This document shows, piece after piece, positions 2,615 through 13,980 of a DNA stretch of 64,000 nucleotides (its first letter is position 1; each line of letters begins with the position of its first letter). The notes under the pieces were generated by a model. The model was not told the DNA's origin and made no database searches. It saw only the letters and a list, made by a program, of their open reading frames with translations. This stretch comes from Clostridia bacterium (lineage in GTDB: Bacteria > Bacillota > Clostridia > Christensenellales > CAG-138). The position numbers and the translations under genes were made by a program. The stretch covers positions 3,796-67,795 of the forward strand of contig JAFSEB010000040.1 in assembly GCA_017435905.1 (NCBI GenBank), in the 5' to 3' direction.

Positions 2615-3181
2615 ATGAAACAGAAAAACGGTTCCTCCGTGCGCATGATCGAAAACCGCATGGTGGATCCCAACGCCCTTGCCGCACACTACGCCGCTGC
2701 GGCATACGGCGATACAAAGGAACAGGAAAAGGCGGCTTATCGGGAAACGGAAAAAAGGCTGTTCGCCCTTCGGGCGCTGCAGGCACGCATGGCGGAAACG
2801 AAGGAGGAGCTCAGCGAACTTGAAAGCCTTGGCATCGATGCGCTTCGGGAGCACAGCGCTTCCCTTGTCAGGGTGCTGCGCCCCGGCATGCGCCTTGAGC
2901 CGGAGGAGGTGCACCGCATGCAGCTTGATATGCTCCGCGGCAGGCTTGCGGCGGATGAACGGGAGTGGAAGCGGATGCGCATCGCCCTCGATTTCATTCG
3001 GGATGATCCCTACTACCCTGCCGTGGAGGCACGCTACCTGAAGGGCATGGGGGATGGGGATGTGGCGCAGCGGCTTTGCTGTGATCCTTCCACCGTGCGC
3101 CGCAACAGGGTGCGCCTTGTGCGCACGCTGGCCCTTCGCCTTTACGGGCTTGGAGGTGTGCTGTGCGTGAACTCTTACTGA
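2615..3181 (+). CDS. Phage late-gene regulator-like protein (ArpU/RinA / sigma-70 region-4-like HTH). It could double as a small terminase.
   Basis: 188 aa. The C-terminal ...YLKGMGDGDVAQRLCCDPSTVRRNRVRLVRTLALRLYG looks like a sigma region-4 HTH. It sits immediately upstream of terL and overlaps it. Confidence 0.5.
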   Translation: MKQKNGSSVRMIENRMVDPNALAAHYAAAAYGDTKEQEKAAYRETEKRLFALRALQARMAETKEELSELESLGIDALREHSASLVRVLRPGMRLEPEEVHRMQLDMLRGRLAADEREWKRMRIALDFIRDDPYYPAVEARYLKGMGDGDVAQRLCCDPSTVRRNRVRLVRTLALRLYGLGGVLCVNSY

Positions 3182-4506
3182 CGGGTACGCCCAATGCAAG
3201 GCAGGCGGAGTTTTTTCGGGCAACGGCACGCCACACCGCCTACGGCGGCGCCCGGGGCGGCGGCAAAAGCTGGGCCATGCGGCGAAAGCTGGTGCTGCTT
3301 TGCCTTGCTACGCCAAACCTCAATGCGCTGCTGCTGCGCCGCACGCTGCCGGAGCTGAGGGAAAACCATGTGGTGCCCCTTTTGAAGGAGCTTCACGGCG
3401 TGGCGGAATATAACGGCACGGAGCGCACCTTCCGCTTTCCCAACGGATCACGGCTGCGCCTTGGCTACTGCGACGGCGCCAACGATGTGTACCAGTATCA
3501 GGGGCAGGAATACGATGTCATCGGCATGGAGGAAGCCACCCATTTTACAGAGGAACAAATGCGCTTTTTGACCACCTGCAACCGTACCGTAAAGGCGGAT
3601 TTCCGCCCACGGATGTACTATACCTGCAACCCGGGCAACGTGGGGCACGCATGGGTGAAGCGGCTTTTTATCGACAGGCAGTACCAAAGCGGCGAACGGC
3701 CGGAGGATTATGCCTTCATCCCTGCAAGGGTGTGGGACAACAAGGTGCTGCTTGCTGCGGATCCCGATTATGTGCGCCAGCTGCAGGCTTTGCCGGAGGA
3801 GCTTCGCCGTGCCCACCTTGACGGCGACTGGGATGTGCACGCAGGACAGTATTTCCGTGAGTTTTCCCGGGAAAAGCACGTGGCGGAACCCTTTTCCGTC
3901 CCCAAATGGTGGCGGCGCTTCCGCTCCATGGATTGGGGGTACAACGATCCCTGCTGCGTGCTGTGGCATGCGGTGGATGGGGATGGGCGTGTGTTCACCT
4001 ACAGGGAGCTGTATGTGCGGCACACGCAGGCATCGGAGGTGGCAAAGAAGATCATCTCCCTGACGGGGGATGAGGAGATCGCCTATACCGTGGCATCGCC
4101 GGATATGTGGCAGAAACGTGGGGCGGTACTGAAGGCGGAGGGCGGCTTTACCGGCGAGAGCATCGCAGAGCTGTTTGCACGCTTTGGCGTTGCGCTGACC
4201 CCTGCGGACAACGCCCGTGTGGCAGGCTGGCAGCGTGTGAGGGAATACCTTGCGGAAAACGAGGCAGGGGAGCCTTATTGGCAGGTGTTTCCCGATTGCG
4301 TGAACCTGATCCGCACGCTGCCCCTTCTGCAGTTTGACTCCCACAACCGTGAGGATGCTGCCGATGGGGATGACCACGCACCGGAGGCGCTCCGCTATGC
4401 GCTGATGTCACGCCCCCGAAAAAGCGAACAGGCCGCAGCAAGGCGGCAGAAACGTTACGATCCTTTTTCCCAGCCCACCGCCCGTGCAGGCTTTATGGAG
4501 CGCTGA
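3163..4506 (+). CDS. terL: Phage terminase large subunit
   Basis: 447 aa. It has the Walker A-like GGARGGGKS, DVIGMEEATHF, and C-terminal acidic nuclease-type motifs (HLDGDWDV, EDAADGDDHAPEA). The GTG start follows GGAGGTG. Confidence 0.9.
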   Translation: MRELLLTGTPNARQAEFFRATARHTAYGGARGGGKSWAMRRKLVLLCLATPNLNALLLRRTLPELRENHVVPLLKELHGVAEYNGTERTFRFPNGSRLRLGYCDGANDVYQYQGQEYDVIGMEEATHFTEEQMRFLTTCNRTVKADFRPRMYYTCNPGNVGHAWVKRLFIDRQYQSGERPEDYAFIPARVWDNKVLLAADPDYVRQLQALPEELRRAHLDGDWDVHAGQYFREFSREKHVAEPFSVPKWWRRFRSMDWGYNDPCCVLWHAVDGDGRVFTYRELYVRHTQASEVAKKIISLTGDEEIAYTVASPDMWQKRGAVLKAEGGFTGESIAELFARFGVALTPADNARVAGWQRVREYLAENEAGEPYWQVFPDCVNLIRTLPLLQFDSHNREDAADGDDHAPEALRYALMSRPRKSEQAAARRQKRYDPFSQPTARAGFMER

Positions 4507-4565: not shown

Positions 4566-6164
4566 ATGACCAACAGCAATCGAAACAAGACCGAACGCCT
4601 TTACGAACTTTTTGAAGAATACCGCAGCGCATATGCCGCCGAATGGGACCGCCTTGAGCGCTGCGAGCGCATCTACCGGGGCGACCACTGGCAGGATGTG
4701 CCGCAGCAGGATGAAAACGAGCCCCGACCCGTAACGCCGGTGCTGCAGTCCACCATTGAAAACGTCCGTGCGGACCTTATTGACAACATGCCGGAGGCTG
4801 TCATCGTCTCCGACGGGGCAGGGCATGAGCGTGTGGCGGAAATGCTCACCGCCCTCATTCGGGAAAACCACCGCCTTTGCCGCTTCGACAGGGAATATGC
4901 CAACATGATGCACGACCTGCTTGTGGGCGGCTACATGGTGCAGGAGACCGGCTACGACAGCGAGCTCAACGGCGGCTTCGGCGCAGCATTTCTCCGTGCG
5001 GTGGATCCCCACAGCATCATGTTCGATCCCCTTGTTGCGGATATCCGCCAGTCGAGGGCGATCTTCAAATTTGCACCCTATCCGCTGGATTGGTTCCGTG
5101 CCCATTATCCCGAGCAGGCGGCGGATATGCGGGAGGATATCTTCCGCCCCGTGCGTGTGCAGGATGACCACCTCCGGCAGGAAAACCGGGATATGGTGCT
5201 GCTCATCGAGGCATGGGAACGGGAATACGACAACGAAAGCGGCAGGCACCGTGTGCACATGACAAAGCTGGCAGGCGGCGTCATCCTTGAGGACAGCCGT
5301 GACCACAAGCCCCAGGGCTATTTTGCCCACGGGGAATATCCCTTTGTGGTGACGCCCCTGTTCCTCCGCAAGGGCACGCCCCTCGGCTACGGGTTTGTGG
5401 ATATGTTCGAGACCCAGCAGCGCTATGCGGATAAGCTCGACCAGATCATCCTGAAAAATGCGCTGATGGCATCCCACAACAAGCTGCTCATCACCGGCGC
5501 TTCCGGCTTCGACCCGGAGGATCTTCGCGACTGGTCCAAGGAGGTGCACCGGGGCGAAAGCCTTGCAGGCGTGACATGGTTCCCCACCGCACCGCTGCCG
5601 GGCTACCTTCTCAGCTACGGGGAGCACATCCGCCAAAGCATCCGTGAGGAATCCGGCACCAACGATTTTTCCCGTGGACAGACCTACGGCGGCGTTACGG
5701 CAGCCTCTGCCATCGCTGCGCTGCAGGAAGCCGGCAGCAAGCGCAGCCGCATGATCGCCCGGGCGGTGCACAGCGCCTTTGAGGAAGCCGTCCGTCAGGA
5801 GCTGGAGGTGGAGCGTGAGTTTTGCGTGCTGCCCCGCCGCATCACCCTTGAAAATGCGGAGACAGGCAGGGAGGAAGCCATCGCCTTCACCGGCGAGACC
5901 ATGTTCGAGCTTACCGCACGCAAAAACCGCCTGCCCCTTGAGTTCGGCGTCAGCGTCAAGGCGCAGAAGGAGAACCGCTTCAGCGTGGCGGCCCATAATG
6001 AGCTTGTGCTGAGCCTTGTGAAGCTCAACATGATCACCCCTGCCATCGGCCTTGATATGCTGCTTTTCGACGGCAAACGGGAAGCGCAGGCGAAGATGCG
6101 TGAGCATCTCCGCATGGAGCAGGAGCAGGCACAGCAGGCGCAGGCTGCACCGCTGCAGCGTTAA
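4566..6164 (+). CDS. Phage portal protein
   Basis: 532 aa with RBS AGAGAGGAAA, located directly after terL. Size, position and the N-terminal ...RIYRGDHWQ... region are typical of portal proteins. The family was not verified by HMM. Confidence 0.75.
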   Translation: MTNSNRNKTERLYELFEEYRSAYAAEWDRLERCERIYRGDHWQDVPQQDENEPRPVTPVLQSTIENVRADLIDNMPEAVIVSDGAGHERVAEMLTALIRENHRLCRFDREYANMMHDLLVGGYMVQETGYDSELNGGFGAAFLRAVDPHSIMFDPLVADIRQSRAIFKFAPYPLDWFRAHYPEQAADMREDIFRPVRVQDDHLRQENRDMVLLIEAWEREYDNESGRHRVHMTKLAGGVILEDSRDHKPQGYFAHGEYPFVVTPLFLRKGTPLGYGFVDMFETQQRYADKLDQIILKNALMASHNKLLITGASGFDPEDLRDWSKEVHRGESLAGVTWFPTAPLPGYLLSYGEHIRQSIREESGTNDFSRGQTYGGVTAASAIAALQEAGSKRSRMIARAVHSAFEEAVRQELEVEREFCVLPRRITLENAETGREEAIAFTGETMFELTARKNRLPLEFGVSVKAQKENRFSVAAHNELVLSLVKLNMITPAIGLDMLLFDGKREAQAKMREHLRMEQEQAQQAQAAPLQR

Positions 6165-6179: not shown

Positions 6180-6386
6180 ATGAAAAAGTTTGAACGCATG
6201 ACGAAGAAGGGAGCGGAGGCAGGGCTTTCCTGCCTTCTCTCCATCTGCACGGATACGGAGCAGAAAGCGGCGGACAGGATCGCAGCGGCAAAGGTGCTCA
6301 TCGACTTCGGCCGCAAGGCGGAAGCAGCGGAGGATGGCGCACTTCGGGTGGTGCTGGAGGGCGTGCCGAAGGAGTTTTTATGTTAA
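6180..6386 (+). CDS. Small hypothetical protein (68 aa) in the phage-like operon
   Basis: A GGGAGG RBS lies 6 nt before the ATG. The gene is tightly packed between the portal gene and the 623-aa gene. No recognisable motif was found. Confidence 0.45.
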   Translation: MKKFERMTKKGAEAGLSCLLSICTDTEQKAADRIAAAKVLIDFGRKAEAAEDGALRVVLEGVPKEFLC

Positions 6387-6413: not shown

Positions 6414-8285
6414 ATGTATTGGGAGAATTTATACAATAAGAAGAACAAGGTAAACAAGCCTGTGGAGCTGGATTATTTTCAGCAGGAAAAGGTGAAAGAG
6501 TACCGGCAGCTTGCCGATGATGCAAACCGCTGGCTGGATCTTCCTACGGTACCTTCACGGCTTTCCTCTTCGGGGATCTCTATACCGGGCTTTCTGCATG
6601 AGGAGCAGAATGTCAGGAACATGCAGGCAGCCCTCGGCGTAGAGGAAGACGGCGATTGGGGCCCCGTAACGGAAAAAGCATTCCGCACCACCCTTATCAA
6701 CCAGCGTGACGGGGCGGAAAACGCCATTTCGGAGATATTTGCCGCTGCTGCGGCGGAGCAGGAACGGGCGGAGAAGGCGCAGCCGCAGCTTGCCTACGGC
6801 ACGGCGCAGGTGGGGCAGTACCTTGCCGCACCGGCATCAGTACAGAAACCGGTCTACCTTACCGCAGACGGCAGCCGCACCAATGTACCCACCGGCACTT
6901 CCCCGAAAAAGGAACAGGTCTACCTTACCGCAGACGGCAAGCGCACCAACGTGCCGGGCATCACCGCAAGCCCCGGTTCCTCCGGCAGCAAGGGCAGCAC
7001 CGGTATTGCAGCCTATGACCGCACGATGCAAACGGCAGATGCTTCCAGCCTTGGCAGCACCGCAAAAAATACCCTTGCTGCGCCAAGTTATAACCGCACT
7101 GCCCTTACTGCAGACGAGCCCCACGGCGCCGCAGCGGAGCGTGGGAACATCTACAACACCGCAGACGGCAAACGGACGAATGTGGTAGGCGGCGCACGGA
7201 ACAGCGGCATTGGCAGGCCGACAGCCATGGAAAAAGGAGAACCCATTGCCCGCTTTGGCGGTGCAGTGCCCCAAAACAGCAGCCCGACCGACGGCTATCA
7301 AGGTGGGCCTGTGGATGAGACGGTGCTTAGCAGCAAGACAAGCGAGCTTTTGAGTAACGTAGCGAATCAGATGAAACAAACTTACTTAACATACAAAGTA
7401 GATGCTGAGCCGTGGAGTGAAGAATGGAACATGCAGCGAATGAAGAAAAAAGAGCTGCACGATAATTGGCAAAAGGCGCAGTGGCTTTATTGGGATTATC
7501 TGCTGAATCATGAAACGGATGAAATGAACGCAGATGATGTCTATGCAGTTTCACCGAATCTTTTGATTGATTTGGCTGTAAGCGATGGAAAGGATTCGAT
7601 TGCATCGCACGGATATAACAAGGACAATTATCCGCATGTTTCGGTTATAGATAATGAATTGAAACAGTTCAGAGATGAGGGTGCCTTATACACATATGCG
7701 GGCAGCAAATTGAACTATTATACAAAGGTTAGTGGTTTGGAGCATATGTGCAGCATCTATTCGGTGGATTGGGGAAACGGCAATGTTGAATTCGTTACAG
7801 GACCGATTGTAAGCGGAACAATAATCAAAAACGAAAAGAAAAACACGGAAACCCCAAATGTAATCATGCCGTTTGCTGCGAGCATAATTGGTGCGAAAAA
7901 CTACACCGCTGAAATGGAAAAGATATTCAGAGGCGCAAAAGTTGAGTATGAAGGGATCATTCATTCGCATCCAAGCTATTTATCTGATACTTATGGCTAT
8001 GATAATAACGATGAGTTTTCCTGGGGTGACGGATTAGCTGCGCTGCTTGCAGGCCAAATAACCTTGACAACACAAGATAGTACTATGTTTGTCCTGAACC
8101 AGGATGAGGCACTGGAGGTAGTGATATCAGGATTAAAGGCTGATATTGCAAGACTCTTAAAGAATAGCAACTTAGAAAAAAGAGATGAAATTGATTGGAA
8201 CTCTATCATCCAAAGCTCACAAGATTTCCGCAGGGGAAGAAATTTTACAACTCTTCCGTACCACGCTTTTGACGCACGGGAATAA
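6414..8285 (+). CDS. Modular 623-aa protein with a PG_binding_1-like motif, tandem repeats and a C-terminal HSHP...DEFSWGD (JAB/DUF4329-like?) domain. It is the candidate main gene of a polymorphic locus.
   Basis: RBS AAGGAAGGA. There is no signal peptide and no TM helix. NMQAALGVEEDGDWGPVTEKAFRT is a peptidoglycan-binding-type motif. The motif (V/I)Y(L/N)TADG(S/K)RTNV occurs three times. The C-terminus reads GIIHSHPS-x12-DEFSWGDG...ITLTTQDSTMFVL. Confidence 0.8.
   Translation: MYWENLYNKKNKVNKPVELDYFQQEKVKEYRQLADDANRWLDLPTVPSRLSSSGISIPGFLHEEQNVRNMQAALGVEEDGDWGPVTEKAFRTTLINQRDGAENAISEIFAAAAAEQERAEKAQPQLAYGTAQVGQYLAAPASVQKPVYLTADGSRTNVPTGTSPKKEQVYLTADGKRTNVPGITASPGSSGSKGSTGIAAYDRTMQTADASSLGSTAKNTLAAPSYNRTALTADEPHGAAAERGNIYNTADGKRTNVVGGARNSGIGRPTAMEKGEPIARFGGAVPQNSSPTDGYQGGPVDETVLSSKTSELLSNVANQMKQTYLTYKVDAEPWSEEWNMQRMKKKELHDNWQKAQWLYWDYLLNHETDEMNADDVYAVSPNLLIDLAVSDGKDSIASHGYNKDNYPHVSVIDNELKQFRDEGALYTYAGSKLNYYTKVSGLEHMCSIYSVDWGNGNVEFVTGPIVSGTIIKNEKKNTETPNVIMPFAASIIGAKNYTAEMEKIFRGAKVEYEGIIHSHPSYLSDTYGYDNNDEFSWGDGLAALLAGQITLTTQDSTMFVLNQDEALEVVISGLKADIARLLKNSNLEKRDEIDWNSIIQSSQDFRRGRNFTTLPYHAFDARE
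6851..6955 (+). repeat. In-frame tandem coding repeat (two 39-nt copies, 66-nt period)
   Basis: GGTCTACCTTACCGCAGACGGCA(G/A)(C/G)CGCACCAA(T/C)GT(A/G)CC occurs at 6851-6889 and 6917-6955. A degenerate third copy lies at 7149-7185. Confidence 0.8.
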
Positions 8286-8303
8286 TTAAAAGAGGAGACA
8301 AAC

Positions 8304-8744
8304 ATGGAAAAGAAGGGATATCTGCTTCTCTATACGCTTTGCATTGTGGAGGGCATTGCTCTGATCATATTGTGCGTGTGCGGCGGTGCGTTGGAACTGG
8401 TGCGGGGGCTGTTGGCGCTTTCAGCATATGACTACCCCAACTGGAATATGGAAGTGGCCGCCTATCCGAAAAAGATCGCGTATGTGATCGGCAGGGATAC
8501 GGAAATCGATCTTTCAGGTACTGTTGTCAGTTATACCTTCGGGTGGCACGAACCGGAAGAGGACGAGATTTATGCTTATGATGACCCCATATTCGAAGTG
8601 GATACCTCGGCAGTGGATCTGACGAAGGAAGGGACATATGAAGTCGTCATTTCAACGGTTGATCCTACAGACTATGGTGCCGAATGCATCTTGCCGATCC
8701 AAGTGATCGCACCGCAGGAACAAAGTGCACATGTTATGCCCTGA
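8304..8744 (+). CDS. Single-pass membrane protein with one Big_3-like Ig domain (paralog A)
   Basis: RBS AGAGGAG. The N-terminal TM is LLLYTLCIVEGIALIILCVCGG, followed by YPKKIAYVIGRDTEIDLSG...DLTKEGTYEVVI...CILPIQVIAP. Confidence 0.75.
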   Translation: MEKKGYLLLYTLCIVEGIALIILCVCGGALELVRGLLALSAYDYPNWNMEVAAYPKKIAYVIGRDTEIDLSGTVVSYTFGWHEPEEDEIYAYDDPIFEVDTSAVDLTKEGTYEVVISTVDPTDYGAECILPIQVIAPQEQSAHVMP

Positions 8745-8760
8745 TGCGGGAGGGAAGACG

Positions 8761-9168
8761 ATGAAAAAGCAAAAAGATAATTGGCTGATAACATTGTGGA
8801 TCATTGAAAGCATTGCTCTTATCTGTGCTTTGGTCATGGTCGGACGGGTGCGGAATCTCGATGCAAGCAGGGATACAGATAATCCCGATTTTTATGCAAA
8901 AATCAGAAATTTTCCCGATAAAGTGGTTTATGTGGCGGGCGTGGATACGGAATTGGATCTGCGTGGCTGCACCATATCGGAATCGAGGCTTTTTGGTGCG
9001 GACGACGGGACCGCGGAAGATCTTGTCTCCAACTTAGGCACCCACTTTACCGTTGTGTCGGAAGATATCGACTTTTCCACCCCGGGCATTTATGAAGTGC
9101 GCATCCGTGGTTATGATACGGAATGTGCCTTCCCCATCGAAGTCATCGACCCTGCGGCATTGGAGTAA
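8761..9168 (+). CDS. Single-pass membrane Big_3-like Ig-domain protein (paralog B)
   Basis: Start ATG 8761 follows GGGAGGGAAG. The TM is WLITLWIIESIALICALVMVG, followed by FPDKVVYVAGVDTELDLRG...FSTPGIYEVRI...CAFPIEVIDP. Confidence 0.75.
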   Translation: MKKQKDNWLITLWIIESIALICALVMVGRVRNLDASRDTDNPDFYAKIRNFPDKVVYVAGVDTELDLRGCTISESRLFGADDGTAEDLVSNLGTHFTVVSEDIDFSTPGIYEVRIRGYDTECAFPIEVIDPAALE

Positions 9169-9206
9169 AACCCAAGCCCCGGCACACGGCTTTCCGTGCG
9201 TCGGGG
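9022..9206 (+). repeat. Direct repeat copy 1 (3' end of paralog B plus junction stem-loop)
   Basis: About 97% identical by eye to 11863-12046 (roughly 5 mismatches and 1 indel in 185 nt). Confidence 0.85.
9177..9206 (+). repeat. Conserved cassette-junction stem-loop
   Basis: CCCCGGCACACGG-CTTT-CCGTGCGTCGGGG. Homologous hairpins lie at 10161-10187, 11078-11107, 12018-12046 and 13950-13977. Only a weak T tract follows. Confidence 0.6.
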
Positions 9207-9632
9207 TTTGATGCACCGTTTCCCGGCTATCTCAGGCTGACCGAAAAGAGTGTCGAATACCTCTGCATGCTGCATTCGCATCCCTCACGGCGTGATCCAT
9301 CTGATGATAACGATGAGTTTTCCTGGGGCGACGGCCTTGTTGCAGCTGTTTCCGGCAAAATCTATCTGACCACGCCGCATGGGAATGTTTATGCTTTAAG
9401 TCAGGAAGATGCTAAAACAGTAATTGATACAGGACTCGATTGGGACAAAACTGTTTTTGCCCAAAAGAAGAAGCCGCTTTTGAAGGCGTTGTGGTATGGG
9501 CTCAATCCAACTGATGCTTTTTACTATAATGTGCTTGCTGACTACGATGAACATAGGAAGAAAGCGGCACAAACACTCCCCGGATACAATTATGAGACGT
9601 TTGATGCTAAGACCTATAACACATATAAATGA
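9207..9632 (+). pseudogene. Orphan 5'-truncated copy (CT-1) of the 623-aa protein's C-terminal domain
   Basis: The frame reads ...FPGYLRLTEKSVEYLCMLHSHPSRRDPSDDNDEFSWGDGLVAAVSGKIYLTTPHGNVYAL... and ends at 9632. It starts right at the hairpin with no RBS. The first in-frame ATG after the hairpin is 9267 (MLHSHPS). ORF 9123-9632 overlaps paralog B in another frame. Confidence 0.55.
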
Positions 9633-9655
9633 TCTTTGATACAAGGAAGGCTAAT

Positions 9656-10153
9656 ATGGAGCAAGGGAGCAAGAAGCGGATTTCGAAAGAAATAATTGTG
9701 AAATATGTGGCTGCAATGGCGATTATTATGGTATCTGCGCAGGTGATCTTCAGGGGCTGTTTTCCGTTTTTCTTGCTTGCGAATGGAGTTGAGTCCACAT
9801 ATCCCCAAGGCTACCGTATTCACACGCTCCCTGCAAAACAGGTGTATATAGCGGGACAGGATACGGAACTGGACCTTACCGGGGGCGAAATCTGCCATAG
9901 CAATGAACAAAACGAATTTCCTGAACAGTATGGTTACTGCACAACGGAATACTGTGAAGACCCTATTCCCATGGAAGCGGCATTGGCGGAATATGAATGG
10001 CTGAGCGTTGAAACCGATGCGGATTTTTCCATCCCGGGAGAATATAAGGTGACATTTTGGTATCCTAATTTCTTTGATGGTATGGATGATGGCAAGATGC
10101 TCTCCTGCTCCTTCCCCATCGTTGTCATTGACCCCAAAGATGCAGTCAGATAA
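9656..10153 (+). CDS. Single-pass membrane Big_3-like Ig-domain protein (paralog C)
   Basis: Start ATG 9656 follows AAGGAAGG. The TM is YVAAMAIIMVSAQVIF, followed by LPAKQVYIAGQDTELDLTGG...FSIPGEYKVTF...CSFPIVVIDPKDAVR. Confidence 0.7.
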   Translation: MEQGSKKRISKEIIVKYVAAMAIIMVSAQVIFRGCFPFFLLANGVESTYPQGYRIHTLPAKQVYIAGQDTELDLTGGEICHSNEQNEFPEQYGYCTTEYCEDPIPMEAALAEYEWLSVETDADFSIPGEYKVTFWYPNFFDGMDDGKMLSCSFPIVVIDPKDAVR

Positions 10154-10160
10154 AACGGAT

Positions 10161-10187
10161 CCGGCGTGCGGTTTTTCCGCGCGCCGG
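10161..10187 (+). repeat. Conserved cassette-junction stem-loop (variant)
   Basis: CCGGCGTGCGG-TTTTT-CCGCGCGCCGG, located 8 nt after the stop of paralog C. Confidence 0.5.
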
Positions 10188-10603
10188 GCTTGATGTACCG
10201 CTCGCCCGGCTATCTGAGCTTGATCGAAAACGGAGCAAAAGTGGAGCACCTCGGCATGCTGCATTCGCATCCGTCGAGAGCAAATGGCGAAGATAATGAC
10301 GAGTTTTCTTTGGGCGATGCTATTGTTTCTGTAGTGTCAAGAAGAATCTACTTGACTACGCCAGAGGGATATGTATACGCACTGGACAGGAAAGACGGCT
10401 GGAAACTTATCGTGCCCGGATATAAAAGGGAACGCGTAAATGCCGCTGATTGGCAACTTTATTACGGAAGCGTCACGGAAGAAGAACTTCCTAAATGGAT
10501 CGTGGAAGCTTTAGCCGAAGATTATGTTGCGAAGCAGGATGCAAAATCAAAAGGAAGTAATTTTGTGACGTTTGACATTAATACCTATAACACACGAAAG
10601 TAG
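10188..10603 (+). pseudogene. Orphan 5'-truncated copy (CT-2) of the 623-aa protein's C-terminal domain
   Basis: ...SPGYLSLIENGAKVEHLGMLHSHPSRANGEDNDEFSLGDAIVSVVSRRIYLTTPEGYVYAL...TFDINTYNTRK*. No RBS is present. Candidate starts are GTG 10166 (inside the hairpin) or ATG 10193. Confidence 0.55.
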
Positions 10604-10611
10604 AGGGTTTT

Positions 10612-11070
10612 ATGGACAAAAAACAGACAAGCCGAAGCTGGCTTAAAACGCTGCTGATTGTGGAAAATGTGATCATCATCGCAGTTTTGCTGCACTTTGG
10701 TGTTAAGGAGATCAAGAGAGTGGTAAGTTATATTCGTTATCCAAGCTCTGTGTATGTAATCAACATACATCGCTATCCGGACAAGCTGGTTTACGTTGCC
10801 GGAGAAGATACGGTGCTGGATCTTACCGGAGGCGAACTGTGCCTGAGCAGCGAGGGCGGCTTTACAAACGGGTTTCCTTGCGAATTTAATCCGGAACGGA
10901 AAAACATGGGAGAAGGATATTGTGAGATCGTATATTCTATGACAGAAGATGAATATGAAACGAATGCAGATCTTTCCGTGCCAGGCAGATACTATATTCG
11001 CTTTTCGCTGGATAGAGGAACTTGCTCCTTCCCCATCGTGGTCATCGACCCTAAAGATGCGGTGAAATAA
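10612..11070 (+). CDS. Single-pass membrane Big_3-like Ig-domain protein (paralog D)
   Basis: RBS AGAGGG. The TM is WLKTLLIVENVIIIAVLLHFGV, followed by YPDKLVYVAGEDTVLDLTGG...LSVPGRYYIRF...CSFPIVVIDPKDAVK. Confidence 0.75.
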   Translation: MDKKQTSRSWLKTLLIVENVIIIAVLLHFGVKEIKRVVSYIRYPSSVYVINIHRYPDKLVYVAGEDTVLDLTGGELCLSSEGGFTNGFPCEFNPERKNMGEGYCEIVYSMTEDEYETNADLSVPGRYYIRFSLDRGTCSFPIVVIDPKDAVK

Positions 11071-11077
11071 GCCCAAG

Positions 11078-11107
11078 CCCCGGCACATGGCTTTCCGTGC
11101 GCCGGGG
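11078..11107 (+). repeat. Conserved cassette-junction stem-loop
   Basis: CCCCGGCACATGG-CTTT-CCGTGCGCCGGGG. Confidence 0.55.
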
Positions 11108-11163
11108 CGAATGCACTCTTTGTCCGGCCGGGGCTTCTTAAAGGAAAGCGGAGCAAAGACCAA
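11108..11163 (+). pseudogene. Short remnant of a third orphan C-terminal cassette
   Basis: CGAATGCAC...TCCGGCCGGGGCTTCTTAAAGGAAAGCGGAGCAAAGACCAAG parallels the first ~55 nt of CT-1 and CT-2 (..PGYL.L.E.GAK..). Homology then stops and the next Ig-like gene begins. Confidence 0.4.
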
Positions 11164-11188
11164 GGGCAGTAAATAAAGTGAGGAATCA

Positions 11189-11623
11189 ATGAAAAAAAGC
11201 CATTTGCAGCACGCTTTGCTGCTCTATGTGATTTGTGTTGCTGAAAGCTTGTTTTTAATTGCGTATTCAGCAGCGTGGGTTGGCTCGCGGATCATGGTTT
11301 CCATGTCGAACCCGAGGGACACGGTCAACAGGGTAACGGTCGTGAACTACCCGGAACAGTTGGTATATGTTCTTGGTATAGATACGGAACTGAAACTTGA
11401 CGGTTTGACTGTGGCTTATGCAAAATACGGGGATGATGTGACCGAAAATGATCTCTACGAAATAGGCAGTCAATATGTAACAGTGGATACATCCCGGGTC
11501 GATCTTACAACGCCGGGCGTATACGAAGCATACATCGTGCTGTTTGACACATGCTGCATATTGCCGATAGAGGTTATCGATCTACAGCAATATGCTGCAG
11601 CGGAAGGGGTGGAGCATCGGTGA
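11189..11623 (+). CDS. Single-pass membrane Big_3-like Ig-domain protein (paralog E)
   Basis: RBS GTGAGGA. The TM is ALLLYVICVAESLFLIAYSAAWVG, followed by YPEQLVYVLGIDTELKLDG...LTTPGVYEAYI...CCILPIEVID. Confidence 0.75.
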   Translation: MKKSHLQHALLLYVICVAESLFLIAYSAAWVGSRIMVSMSNPRDTVNRVTVVNYPEQLVYVLGIDTELKLDGLTVAYAKYGDDVTENDLYEIGSQYVTVDTSRVDLTTPGVYEAYIVLFDTCCILPIEVIDLQQYAAAEGVEHR

Positions 11624-12009
11624 AAGCAAAAAAAGACAACTGGCTGATCATATTGTGTGTTGTGGAAAGCATGGCGATCCTTTTGCTCGCAGCATATCAA
11701 TTGCACAGGAAGTACGGCTCGCATATTGAATATTATGCGCTGGCGTCCCATTTACCCAACAAGATCGCATATGTGGCAGGCGTGGATACAGAGCTCGACC
11801 TGACCGGTGCCACCGTTATCGAGTCAAGCAACACAGCGTATGCGGTGGGCGAGGAATACGACCTTGTCTCCAACCTTGGCACCCACTTTACCGTTGTGTC
11901 GGAAGATATCGACTTTTCCACCCCGGGCATTTATGAAGTGCGCATCCGTGGTTATGATACGGAATGTGTCTTCCCCATCGAAGTCATCGACCCTGCGGCA
12001 TTGGAGTAA
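11620..12009 (+). CDS. Single-pass membrane Big_3-like Ig-domain protein (paralog F)
   Basis: The GTG start at 11620 overlaps the stop of paralog E (GTGA) and follows GGAAGGGGTGGAG. The TM is WLIILCVVESMAILLLAAY, followed by LPNKIAYVAGVDTELDLTG. The C-terminal 48 aa are nearly identical to paralog B. Confidence 0.7.
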   Translation: MKAKKDNWLIILCVVESMAILLLAAYQLHRKYGSHIEYYALASHLPNKIAYVAGVDTELDLTGATVIESSNTAYAVGEEYDLVSNLGTHFTVVSEDIDFSTPGIYEVRIRGYDTECVFPIEVIDPAALE

Positions 12010-12046
12010 AACCAAAGCCCCGGCACACGTTTTCCGTGCGTCGGGG
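11863..12046 (+). repeat. Direct repeat copy 2 (3' end of paralog F plus junction stem-loop)
   Basis: About 97% identical to 9022-9206. The hairpin is at 12018-12046. After it only about 10 nt (CGAATGC..) of the orphan-cassette 5' end remain. Confidence 0.85.
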
Positions 12047-12122
12047 CGAATGCTTTTAAAATGGCAAATGCAGTATGCTGCCTGAGGGCGGTATTTGACG
12101 GGATCCGCCGAAGAAAGGCAAG

Positions 12123-12812
12123 CTACTCCCGGCAGCTTGGAGTGCAGGTATGAATGGTCATGATCTTCATCAGGGTGCCGCTTTCTTCGTCCACGGCGGA
12201 ATCAAAGGTCATCTTTGTGCTGAAATCGGCGGATGTGTCGGAAGTGACGGTGAGAGACTCATCAAACGCAGTCGTTCTGAACCACCGCATCTGCATATCA
12301 AGAAGCGCACGGCTTTCCTGCGGATGTTGCGAAGCAAGGTCAGGTGTGTAGATCTCATACAGGGCATCAAGCATTGCCTGAAGTGATACGGGGATCTCAT
12401 CGGGGGCTTCATCCTTTGGCACTACATAGCTGATGATCACCTTGTGTACGGGCAGGTCTGCGTGCATGGGCGGCCAGATACGGGAAAAGCCGGTAAGGGA
12501 AAAGGCGATAAAGGTATCATCCTCCGTGTGGGTGGACATGTTGCGGATATAGAGATCATAGGGCGGCCCGGGGGCTTTCCAGTATCCGTCCGCAAGGATC
12601 TCCACGCCGTCATCGGCAAGGGCTTCATTGCAGCGTGCGATGAGTGCATCGGAGCGGATCTCCAGCCCTGCTTTTTTTCGTTCCCGGGCGGCGGAGGCGA
12701 TGTCGGAGCCGGTCAGCCACTTTGCAATAAAAAGGATGCATGCAAAAACCGCTGCAGCAATCCATATCATGCGGCGAAGGGTGCGGGTCTTTTTGGCGGA
12801 TATGTTTTGCAT
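12123..12812 (-). CDS. Membrane-anchored hypothetical protein (229 aa) on the opposite strand inside the array
   Basis: Start ATG 12812 lies 7 nt after AAGGAG. It has an N-terminal basic stretch plus the TM IWIAAAVFACILFIAKW. No family motif was recognised. Confidence 0.6.
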   Translation of the reverse strand: MQNISAKKTRTLRRMIWIAAAVFACILFIAKWLTGSDIASAARERKKAGLEIRSDALIARCNEALADDGVEILADGYWKAPGPPYDLYIRNMSTHTEDDTFIAFSLTGFSRIWPPMHADLPVHKVIISYVVPKDEAPDEIPVSLQAMLDALYEIYTPDLASQHPQESRALLDMQMRWFRTTAFDESLTVTSDTSADFSTKMTFDSAVDEESGTLMKIMTIHTCTPSCRE

Positions 12813-13015
12813 AGCGGTGCTCCTTACGCTTTTTTCCAATATAGCATGAAAGACGGCATGCGTAAAGCACGGTGAGGTGTCTTATTGACGCACGGGACAG
12901 AAAGGAATATGCTTAGACTGAAGATGACACAGCTTTTGCGCAGCATACGGCTGCGAAAAACGTGGTTCGTATTATATTGGTCACCCGAAACAAACGAAAA
13001 AAGGAGGCGCTGCAC

Positions 13016-13486
13016 ATGGAAAAACAGGAAAAACGCAATAACCTGCTGCGAAGGATCCTGACGGCAGAAAACCTGCTGCTCCTGCTTTTGATCGGCTTTT
13101 TATGGATGCGGTCCTGCGTGGAGAATTTCGACGGTGTGGAGATTCTTTATGATGCCGGCATCCACCGTTGGCCGGATAAGCTCACCTATGTGATCGGCGA
13201 GGATACGGCGCTTGACCTGACGGGCGGCGTGATCTGCGCCCACGAGTATGACCGGCCGGATGAACCTGCCCGTTCCTGCGTTTCCTTTGCAGGGAAAGAA
13301 ATCGACCACGGCGAGGACAGCTTTACCTACACCATGCTGGAAGCCTGGGAAGACGGGGAATTGACATCGGATATCGACTTTACACGGGAAGGGGTATACA
13401 CCGTCAGGATCCTGCATCAGGATTGGACAGAACTGTGTTTCCCCGTAACGGTGGTGGCGCCGGACAGCCCGGCGGCGCCGCACTGA
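13016..13486 (+). CDS. Single-pass membrane Big_3-like Ig-domain protein (paralog G)
   Basis: Start ATG 13016 follows AAGGAGG. The TM is ILTAENLLLLLLIGFLWM, followed by WPDKLTYVIGEDTALDLTGG...FTREGVYTVRI...CFPVTVVAP. Confidence 0.7.
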   Translation: MEKQEKRNNLLRRILTAENLLLLLLIGFLWMRSCVENFDGVEILYDAGIHRWPDKLTYVIGEDTALDLTGGVICAHEYDRPDEPARSCVSFAGKEIDHGEDSFTYTMLEAWEDGELTSDIDFTREGVYTVRILHQDWTELCFPVTVVAPDSPAAPH

Positions 13487-13504
13487 CGGTGAAAGGAGAA
13501 CACC

Positions 13505-13945
13505 ATGGAACGAAAACAGAGCAGCTGGGTGAAAACGCTTTTTATCGTGGAAAACGCCATCCTTGCGGCGGTGCTGCTTTGCTATCTGCTGGTTAAGGGA
13601 ATCATGTGGTATGAAGACGAGTGGGTGCGCCACGGCAACATCCACCGCTATCCCACAAAGCTCACCTATGTGGCAGGTGTGGACAAAGAGCTTGACTTGA
13701 CGGGCGGCGAGGTCTGCTTCAGCACCGGCTTAGACCAATCCAAAGGCATATTCTGCGCTTCCGATGCGGCCCGTGCGGACGGGCAGAAAGGGCGCTGCAA
13801 GGCGATCCTGCCCATGGCGGAGGCGAAGGTTTCCACCAATGCGGATCTGGACGTGCCGGGGCAGTATTATGTGCAGGTGGAATACCGGGATAGCACCTGC
13901 TTCTTCCCCATCGTGGTCATCGACCCCAAAGATGCGGTGAAATAA
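13505..13945 (+). CDS. Single-pass membrane Big_3-like Ig-domain protein (paralog H)
   Basis: RBS AAAGGAGA. The TM is WVKTLFIVENAILAAVLLCYLLV, followed by YPTKLTYVAGVDKELDLTGG...LDVPGQYYVQV...CFFPIVVIDPKDAVK. Confidence 0.75.
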   Translation: MERKQSSWVKTLFIVENAILAAVLLCYLLVKGIMWYEDEWVRHGNIHRYPTKLTYVAGVDKELDLTGGEVCFSTGLDQSKGIFCASDAARADGQKGRCKAILPMAEAKVSTNADLDVPGQYYVQVEYRDSTCFFPIVVIDPKDAVK

Positions 13946-13949
13946 ACAA

Positions 13950-13980
13950 ACAGGCGCACGGCTTTCCGTGCGCCTGTTTT
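13950..13980. terminator. Terminator at the end of the array (homologous to the junction stem-loops), shared with the convergent gene
   Basis: ACAGGCGCACGG-CTTT-CCGTGCGCCTGT, followed by TTTT and preceded by an A-rich run. Confidence 0.7.

Follow-up and report, generated by a model that had tools for sequence, protein, structure and literature searches.

We analysed 64,000 nucleotides (nt) of DNA from a Clostridia bacterium (assembly GCA_017435905.1, contig JAFSEB010000040.1, positions 3,796 to 67,795; this whole stretch is hereafter called the window), focusing on eight paralogous genes (A to H) whose products are predicted to consist of one transmembrane (TM) helix followed by one immunoglobulin (Ig)-like domain, hereafter TM-Ig proteins. 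They follow a gene encoding a 623-amino-acid (aa) protein that ends in a domain with an HSHP motif (hereafter HSHP domain). We propose that the locus is a polymorphic toxin-immunity system with orphan cassettes, in which the eight TM-Ig paralogs would act as extracytoplasmic immunity proteins, a reading to which we give a probability of about 0.62. The reading draws on the anatomy of the genes, their predicted fold and topology signals, linkage and co-variation, the replacement of a cassette from one genome to another and the relationship between the HSHP domain and a toxin family. The TM-Ig family is most likely a previously undescribed immunity family in gut Clostridia. Coordinates of all features are listed in Table 1.

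Eight paralogous open reading frames (ORFs) of 129-165 aa, all on the + strand between positions 8304 and 13945, could be aligned over their full length. The family profile matched each of them with E-values ranging from 4e-27 to 6e-49, and pairwise BLASTP comparisons gave at best 4e-51 (B/F), with 3e-40 for D/H; C/E and E/G are among the few pairs linked via other copies only. The relationship is real and non-random, and ORFs, alignment and profile matches all agree with the first-pass annotation of this DNA, which had described eight paralogs built on one shared plan. Amino acid identity between paralogs is 22-47 % and synonymous sites are saturated. The ectodomain motifs that had been listed are borne out by the alignment of the eight copies, i.e. 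(Y/F/L/W)PxK..Y(V/I).G.D..L.L.G, then D(L/F)..(P/E)G.Y and finally C.(F/L)P(I/V).V(I/V). A Shine-Dalgarno-like purine run lies 6-10 nt 5' of each gene. The coordinates likewise confirm the tight pairing claimed for A-B (16-nt gap), E-F (overlap GTGA) and G-H (18-nt gap). Two types can be distinguished: a short type with few Cys (A, B, E and F) and a long type with an insert and 3-4 ectodomain Cys (C, D, H and also G). The two subfamilies previously recognised from the C-termini are therefore both real, but A ends in PIQVIAP and not in the PIEVID assigned to it.

Sequence similarity is unevenly distributed between B and F, whose 3' 160 nt are ~97 % identical whereas their 5' parts are only ~55 % identical, which indicates recent gene conversion or mosaic duplication within the array. 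At the DNA level, a 170-nt stretch that includes the hairpin following each gene is 97 % identical between positions 9019-9188 (end of B) and 11860-12029 (end of F). Most family genes in other genomes end in ...FPIQVISPDYVE, followed by a hairpin.

In each paralog, a short basic N-terminus precedes a single hydrophobic stretch (Kyte-Doolittle 1.7-2.6 over 19 residues). Seven of the eight carry a Glu within this stretch (IVEG in A, IIES in B, IVEN in D, VAES in E, VVES in F, TAEN in G and IVEN in H), and C has a Lys in the same alignment column (IVKY). The Glu, previously placed in the middle of the helix, does fall inside the predicted span but lies 5-10 residues from its cytoplasmic end, i.e. 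nearer the inner leaflet than the exact centre. It had also been presented as conserved: an acidic residue is indeed common among TM-type members (26 of 39 non-redundant sequences), but it is not a family-wide feature, given the Lys of C and its absence from the lipoprotein members. A role of this residue in TM-TM contact or charge sensing is speculation; we infer that it probably contributes to a polar E-N/E-S clamp, i.e. to helix-helix association. Distant members of the family have a lipobox signal peptide in place of the TM helix. The basic N-termini, these lipobox variants and the 3-4 ectodomain Cys of the long type together point to a position of the Ig domain outside the cytoplasm.

The AlphaFold model of H, computed from a 34-sequence alignment (predicted local distance difference test, pLDDT, 87.8), shows a helix at residues 5-37 and then a beta-sandwich of seven or eight strands. 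Foldseek comparison of this model returned only Ig-like domains of bacterial surface proteins (best match 4fd0, E 4e-3), with an E-value of 0.13 against 2kpn, the nuclear magnetic resonance structure of a Big_3 domain. In the viral library BFVD, the best matches were Ig-like domains of phage leucine-rich repeat proteins (E 4e-4, root-mean-square deviation of 2.8 Å over 98 columns). The model thus confidently predicts one long N-terminal helix and, after it, an ectodomain folded as an Ig-like beta-sandwich. In Pfam, Big_3 remained below the gathering score on all eight copies (best E 0.23, 12.2 vs 21.2 bits, for G) and InlK_D3 was not significant on any window copy (best E 0.088, for A). A distant member, the two-domain lipoprotein of metagenome contig L027, passes both gathering scores (27.5 vs 25 for InlK_D3 and 21.9 vs 21.2 for Big_3). 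The family is therefore better described as a divergent offshoot than as a recognised member of Big_3 or InlK_D3. Structure prediction and Foldseek, which the first-pass annotation had suggested as a check of its Ig assignment, hence yielded an Ig-like fold: its Big_3-like domain holds as a fold class but not as Pfam membership. Overall, its structural reading was largely right and a functional reading was missing.

This family is rare. The paralogs had no significant match in scans of Pfam, PHROGs, NCBIfam and PADLOC, and no Imm family matched them in the Pfam scan. Thirty-one clusters were retrieved from a set of 5.8 billion proteins, and none of them has a Pfam domain or carries an informative name; the family occurs at 6 loci in 185,579 species-representative genomes and at 26 metagenome loci, and was not found in IMG/VR at the sensitivity used. 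Instead of a common housekeeping family unlinked to the HSHP gene, a possibility that had been raised at the outset, we found a rare family that is tightly linked to HSHP in other genomes as well.

The linkage was assessed by profile scans of the window and at least 20 related loci. All 24 HSHP 3' ends (18 non-redundant) have a family member within 200 nt downstream. A further collection of 22 loci (L043-L064, i.e. 21 genome loci and one viral contig) was found through relatives of the window portal protein, whose gene lies upstream of the 623-aa gene. TM-Ig genes are present in three of these loci (L043-L045), each carrying an HSHP 3' end, and absent from the 18 loci without HSHP; none was seen in L046, whose stored stretch ends within the first part of the toxin gene. 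The association extends to distant members. In six metagenome contigs (L023, L025, L027, L032, L034 and L036), an ORF with an E...H(T/I)HP...SxxD pattern immediately precedes a lipoprotein member, and one of these ORFs matches DUF4329 at 3e-4. L040 encodes a protein with a peptidoglycan (PG)-binding-like motif and a JAB domain (P0072) and, downstream of it, a lipoprotein that carries the family motif. Family members with no JAB-like gene nearby were encountered in only three or four contigs, which are too short to judge.

Some neighbourhoods deserve description. In L027 (372-5367), the JAB-like ORF and the two-domain Ig lipoprotein gene are located directly upstream of genes for an RHS-repeat toxin with a Peptidase_M91 C-terminus and a SUKH (SMI1_KNR4) immunity protein, so that this metagenome contig looks like a composite polymorphic-toxin island. 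In L038, L039 and L041, relatives belonging to the JAB clade are followed by unrelated membrane-anchored or lipoprotein genes. In the phage-like contig L041 (3817-7799), protein P0071, which combines a PG-binding-like motif and a JAB domain, comes directly after an NlpC/P60 endolysin and a holin; it precedes two paralogous membrane-anchored/lipoprotein genes sharing the C-terminus PRGLLERI(T/A)GGKLP, which may represent a second, unrelated family of extracytoplasmic partners for the JAB clade.

Toxin tails fall into discrete types, and pairwise tail identities correlate with those of the Ig ectodomains encoded just downstream (r = 0.80, Mantel p = 2e-4; r = 0.48 when near-identical pairs are left out). 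This co-variation indicates that the modules are inherited as units and, taken alone, is no proof of binding. The closest relative genome (L043) illustrates how they are exchanged. Its portal is 88 % identical to that of the window and its toxin shares 70-90 % identity with the 623-aa protein over much of the N-terminal part (highest around residues 200-290), falling to ~30 % from about residue 310. There, the toxin gene is followed by a G-like/H-like pair instead of A-B, whereas in the window G-H stands at the far end of the array with no toxin. Such an arrangement is the pattern expected from cassette replacement.

Sequence comparisons connect the HSHP domain to a known toxin family. The Glu of SG(L/Q)EHMC, HSH and FSWGD are invariant or nearly so in full-length HSHP members. 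The HSHP domain contains, in the same order, the residues E, H[ST]H, S and D that form the motif of Tox-JAB-2, a polymorphic-toxin domain corresponding to DUF4329 (Zhang et al. 2012, PMC3482391). With the sequence of the toxin C-terminus alone as query, a homologue search gave 2 proteins only, and the HSHP profile gave 58 matches among 1.84 billion representative proteins. Sub-threshold DUF4329 matches were obtained for 21 of the 28 HSHP family members (best 1.5e-4) and Prok-JAB matches for 4 of them; the window sequences all score below the DUF4329 gathering score, orphan cassette 1 being at E 0.032. Protein P0086, matched by the HSHP profile at E 2.4e-6, passes this gathering score (30.3 vs 28.6). 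Among the other profile matches, P0105 has both RHS_repeat and DUF4329 (1e-5), and P0104, P0099 and P0102 carry the RHS-core end motif (...YDP.TGRF...DPTGH) before the domain. Considering these sub-threshold matches, the bridge provided by P0086, the fusions to RHS C-termini and the published residue pattern, we concluded on sequence grounds that the HSHP domain is a putative divergent Tox-JAB-2-like (DUF4329) domain. Its AlphaFold model has a pLDDT of 87.5 and a predicted template modelling score of 0.87.

Several matches of the HSHP profile were discarded. Those found in the Protein Data Bank were only PQQ/beta-propeller proteins, spuriously matched through the strand pair GKIYLTTPxGxVYAL, and the multi-stretch matches P0085, P0087-P0098, P0100 and P0101 were discounted as being of the same kind. 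Upstream of the HSHP domain, a PG_binding_1-like motif occurs around residue 69 of the 623-aa protein. Further downstream, residues 148-258 (positions 6853-7184) contain three copies of Y(L/N)TADG(S/K)RTNV, which correspond to DNA repeats D7 and D8 and are partly kept in L043.

The array is arranged as follows: [toxin-A-B] hairpin, [cassette 1-C] hairpin, [cassette 2-D] hairpin, [E-F] hairpin, m238 (a gene on the opposite strand), [G-H] hairpin. Both orphan cassettes run from ~20 codons before HSHP to the stop codon, are promoter-less and lack the Glu-bearing N-half (SG(L/Q)EHMC) as well as a Shine-Dalgarno sequence or a proper start. In cassette 1, the Met that directly precedes HSHP offers the only in-frame start after the hairpin; compared with cassette 2, 1 nt is deleted, which puts the upstream ATG out of frame. 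Similar orphan cassettes were found in L001, L006, L017 and L043. The five hairpins are mutually homologous (z -3.3 to -5.9, core GGCRCAYGG-YTTT-CCGTGCGYC), and none is present after A or G; strong, comparable hairpins follow most family genes in other genomes. A terminator scan recognised only the hairpin after H. The other four, having no T tail, are regarded as module-end hairpins and not as proven terminators; they may be recombination or processing signals. The peptide 'FRA(S/P)G' encoded after B, C, D, F and H was considered as a remnant of a toxin ORF and rejected, being the translation of the conserved hairpin.

Three features lead us to read the array as a series of toxin-immunity modules: orphan HSHP cassettes stand between paralogs, hairpins mark the module ends, and HSHP is predicted to be a toxin domain. 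The locus displays the hallmarks of polymorphic toxins, i.e. a conserved N-terminal part with a variable C-terminal part, a small co-varying downstream gene and orphan cassettes with their own immunity genes. Over positions 8001-12000, which cover the toxin tail and most of the array, G+C content is 47-48 %, vs 57-60 % in the flanking terminase/portal and host genes, a drop consistent with horizontally exchanged cassettes. Homologues of m238 are found inside the arrays of L008, L009, L014, L018, L028 and L046, and several of them lie immediately 5' of a second long HSHP gene, in divergent orientation; m238 itself had no family match in Pfam, PHROGs, NCBIfam or PADLOC.

From these observations, we infer a mechanism that would involve a toxic HSHP domain, its direct binding and neutralisation by the Ig domain, a target in the envelope and ongoing recombination. 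A module would be made of a toxin 3' end, one or two TM-Ig genes and a hairpin, with silent 3' cassettes stored downstream of the expressed toxin gene. Given the homology shared at the 5' side (the ~20 codons preceding HSHP) and the 3' block (...C.FPI.VI.P... plus hairpin), homologous recombination could swap a tail and its immunity gene jointly. As type II membrane proteins, the TM-Ig proteins would insert N-in/C-out and expose the Ig domain on the outer face of the membrane, where it would bind and block the variable tail of an incoming cognate toxin. Such a position of the Ig domain suggests a toxin target in the cell envelope, plausibly peptidoglycan or one of its precursors, which is consistent with the PG_binding_1-like motif and with the lysis-module neighbourhood of the L041 relative. 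The unpaired E-F and G-H would be immunity genes retained against toxin variants of neighbouring strains.

A number of points weigh against this proposal. Toxicity of the HSHP domain and binding by the Ig domain are both predicted from genes and models. The top Foldseek matches of the HSHP model are MPN/JAB proteins (Npl4, a BRCA1-A complex subunit, Rpn11/Rpn8, CSN6 and the Jab1 domain of Prp8), but all are weak (best E 0.024; TM-score <0.3). Nuclease activity has been predicted for toxin JAB domains (Zhang et al. 2012, PMC3482391), in which case a cytoplasmic immunity protein would be expected, and this fits poorly with an extracytoplasmic one. No signal peptide, TM segment or hydrophobic segment was found in the 623-aa protein, and no MuF, LXG, RHS or PAAR trafficking domain was recognised in it (neither Phage_Mu_F nor Phage_min_cap2 matched in the Pfam scan at E up to 1); residues 1-376 matched nothing in Pfam, PHROGs or NCBIfam, and PADLOC gave no significant match to the protein. 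The model thus provides no route for this signal-less protein to the exterior of the target cell. Co-variation of adjacent genes can come from shared inheritance alone. Eight Ig genes stand against three toxin ends, with two Ig genes in some modules, such as those of full-length toxins, and simple one-to-one immunity does not account for these numbers. Finally, the conserved TM Glu has no role in the immunity model.

The genes upstream of the predicted toxin belong to a phage-derived island (TerS-like, TerL, portal and p68; Table 1). The portal-p68-toxin order is the same in all related loci, and the toxin/Ig array appears as an insertion between portal/p68 and a gene for a 453-aa lipoprotein, in one subclade only; neither p68 nor this lipoprotein matched a family in Pfam, PHROGs, NCBIfam or PADLOC. 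Nearly all of the 21 species-level genome loci, from Clostridia/Christensenellales-type genomes, have intact TerL and portal genes (47-88 % portal identity), which sit among housekeeping genes in neighbourhoods that differ between genomes. The ratio of non-synonymous to synonymous substitution rates (dN/dS) is 0.06-0.09 for TerL across five genomes and 0.03-0.15 for portal; values for the module lie between 0.03 and 0.2, with dS reaching 1.6, and are no higher than for a neighbouring host gene of the beta-lactamase family. The closest sequenced phage portals are less than 30 % identical to that of the window, the 623-aa protein had no match in GenBank phages, and in every genome examined the surrounding 10 kb are free of capsid and tail genes. 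Considering the intact genes, the purifying selection and the missing structural genes, we rejected the idea of a complete prophage or of an ordinary decaying stump; the orphan terminase-portal module has the look of a domesticated unit or of one piece of a split element, not of one in decay. A 245-aa P-loop protein with below-threshold matches to AAA_33 (E 6e-5) and Zeta_toxin (E 4e-4) is encoded immediately 5' of the island, at positions 1827-2564 on the - strand.

Table 1. Positions of the island, predicted toxin, TM-Ig and hairpin features in the window
Feature	Position	Strand	Remarks
TerS-like 188-aa protein	2615-3181	+	Start of the phage-derived island; precedes TerL, also in related genomes; weak sigma-70 region-4-like similarity
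Large terminase (TerL)	3163-4506	+	Pfam Terminase_6N 4e-12, Terminase_3
Portal	4566-6164	+	phrog_156 at 1.4e-54
p68	6180-6386	+	68 aa, between portal and toxin gene; position kept in all related loci
623-aa predicted polymorphic toxin	6414-8285	+	Conserved N-terminal part; variable C-terminal half from ~residue 310
JAB-like E...HSHP...SxxD domain of the 623-aa protein	~7542-8282	+	
Paralog A	8304-8744	+	146 aa; TM-Ig; first of the A-B pair after the full-length toxin gene
Paralog B	8761-9168	+	135 aa; ATG 3 nt inside the open frame
Hairpin after B	9173-9210	+	GC-rich, -29.2 kcal/mol, z -5.9
Orphan HSHP 3' cassette 1	9222-9632	+	C-terminal half of JAB domain only; before C
Paralog C	9656-10153	+	165 aa; directly 3' of cassette 1; Lys, not Glu, in TM helix
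Hairpin after C	10160-10188	+	GC-rich, -25 to -26 kcal/mol
Orphan HSHP 3' cassette 2	10193-10603	+	C-terminal half of JAB domain only; before D
Paralog D	10612-11070	+	152 aa; directly 3' of cassette 2
Hairpin after D	11077-11108	+	GC-rich, -29.7 kcal/mol; repeat families D6, D9
Paralog E	11189-11623	+	144 aa; first of the E-F pair; no toxin cassette upstream
Paralog F	11620-12009	+	129 aa; GTG start overlaps the stop of E
Hairpin after F	12017-12047	+	GC-rich, -23.5 kcal/mol
m238	12123-12839	-	238 aa, N-terminally membrane-anchored; interrupts the array
Paralog G	13016-13486	+	156 aa; first of the G-H pair
Paralog H	13505-13945	+	146 aa; identical to NCBI IJO10_04135 (Clostridia bacterium metagenome-assembled genome); copy modelled
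Hairpin after H	13948-13979	+	Terminator-like, T tail, -27 kcal/mol; array end

Other explanations of the locus were weighed against the toxin-immunity reading. The 623-aa gene comes directly after TerL-portal-p68, i.e. in the slot of head-internal MuF proteins, and the protein could be a cell-wall hydrolase carried by a virion and ejected during infection, with the TM-Ig proteins acting in superinfection exclusion by inhibiting the corresponding enzyme of related incoming phages at the outer face of the membrane, much as T4 Spackle inhibits the gp5 lysozyme. Such a conflict between phages would agree with the PG_binding_1-like motif, with the endolysin and holin adjoining the JAB relative of L041 and with the missing secretion signal, which fits virion cargo. 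However, capsid and tail genes are lacking around the island, as described above, and the family was not found in GenBank phages any more than in IMG/VR at the sensitivity used. Moreover, HSHP-type domains also occur on RHS proteins, i.e. interbacterial toxins, and stored orphan cassettes are typical of polymorphic toxins; we therefore consider this explanation unlikely. A different use of the island, in which TerS-TerL-portal-p68 would package or deliver the JAB toxin, either as an apparatus domesticated from a phage or as one half of a split element that forms particles, and the TM-Ig proteins would provide surface immunity, seems to us quite improbable. If it were true, Gram-positive gut bacteria would have a new route for delivering interbacterial toxins, in this case a wall-acting toxin carried by a particle.

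Since linkage and co-variation show only specific pairing, they would also fit an Ig domain that holds, presents or helps export the toxin on the surface of the producer, in a cohesin-dockerin-like or chaperone manner, without neutralising it. A dedicated partner is conceivable for a toxin devoid of an export signal, and translationally coupled Ig gene pairs could form a complex. Yet E-F and G-H persist without a cassette, which suits stockpiled immunity and not a handling factor, the lipoprotein variants are unable to form a channel, and TipC, the best-studied analogue of the same architecture, is an inhibitor; we hold such a docking or handling role to be rather improbable too. Least convincing is an expanding family of small adhesin- or receptor-like surface proteins unrelated to HSHP, brought next to it by a recombination-prone island. 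Although Ig-like domains of the Big_3/InlK type are typical of adhesins and the eight copies outnumber the three toxin ends, adjacency in 24 of 24 cases, phyletic co-occurrence and the distant JAB linkage would hardly arise without a functional tie, and we regard this possibility as very unlikely. A holin/antiholin role for the TM-Ig proteins was rejected in view of the eight copies, the lipoprotein variants and the large folded ectodomain.

Should the toxin-immunity reading be correct, the TM-Ig proteins would form a new immunity family, made of a single Ig-like domain on a membrane anchor and easily overlooked, since an Ig-like domain is generally taken as the sign of an adhesin. At least one branch of the Tox-JAB-2-like toxins, which have so far only been predicted and were guessed to be nucleases, would act outside the cytoplasmic membrane. 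The locus would also provide a cassette system exchanging part of a catalytic domain along with the immunity gene, and a polymorphic toxin tied to a conserved orphan terminase-portal pair in abundant uncultured gut Clostridia, whose strain competition is poorly known.

The closest studied analogue is the TelC/TipC system. In TipC of Streptococcus intermedius, an N-terminal TM segment is followed by a C-terminal inhibitory domain that faces the wall zone, and TelC acts outside the membrane; the operons contain several tipC paralogs, some of them non-protective, with conserved 5' and 3' blocks that promote recombination (PMC6193138; bioRxiv 10.1101/2022.01.07.475358). The window array likewise combines a TM architecture, tandem paralogs, conserved gene-end blocks and the B/F mosaic. 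However, the TipC ectodomain has a crescent alpha/beta fold whereas that of the TM-Ig proteins is predicted to be an Ig-like beta-sandwich, and there is no sequence similarity between them; in view of this different fold, the TM-Ig proteins are analogues and not members of the TipC family. TelC is a lipid II phosphatase with an LXG domain secreted by a type VII secretion system, whereas the window toxin is JAB-like and has neither an LXG domain nor such a secretion context, and in the window orphan toxin cassettes are interleaved with the putative immunity genes.

As regards the ectodomain, the window copies share with Big_3 (PF07523) and InlK_D3 (PF18981) the predicted beta-sandwich and the P.K..Y..G..LDL.G ... 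G.Y.V pattern. Unlike the Big_3 arrays of large wall-anchored proteins, they consist of a single domain on a TM anchor, and the long type carries a Cys-rich insert. On the toxin side, Tox-JAB-2 shows the same E, H[ST]H, S, D pattern and is also found on RHS C-termini and in phages (PMC3482391), whereas the window domains stay under the DUF4329 threshold and differ in spacing, with 13-17 residues between HSH and SxxD. The reported immunity protein of Tox-JAB-2 is a cytoplasmic NTF2-like protein, in contrast to the membrane-anchored candidates of the window; the pairing of Tox-JAB-1 with the lipoprotein immunity protein Imm65 (PMC3482391) offers a closer parallel to these membrane-anchored and lipoprotein partners.

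MuF toxins (Jamet et al. 2017, PMC5576092) and Bxa, which has two immunity proteins (PMC11699363), resemble the locus in that the toxin lies directly downstream of the portal, in a prophage or remnant of gut Firmicutes, with a variable C-terminus followed by one or more immunity genes. The window differs from the MuF toxins by the 68-aa gene between portal and toxin, the lack of a detectable MuF domain, the membrane-anchored putative immunity proteins and a terminase-portal module without structural genes. As for orphan cassettes, those parts of Jamet et al. 2017 (PMC5576092) reached by a term search make no mention of them. Such cassettes are known from Rhs and CdiA systems, where promoter-less 3' toxin fragments with a short homologous leader are likewise followed by their own immunity gene (PMC3482391). 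Unlike these, one class of cassettes of the locus begins inside the catalytic domain, just before the HSH ligands, so that exchange concerns the ligand half and the tail and leaves the Glu-bearing N-half unchanged. In a second, longer class, the whole sequence beyond about residue 310 is replaced.

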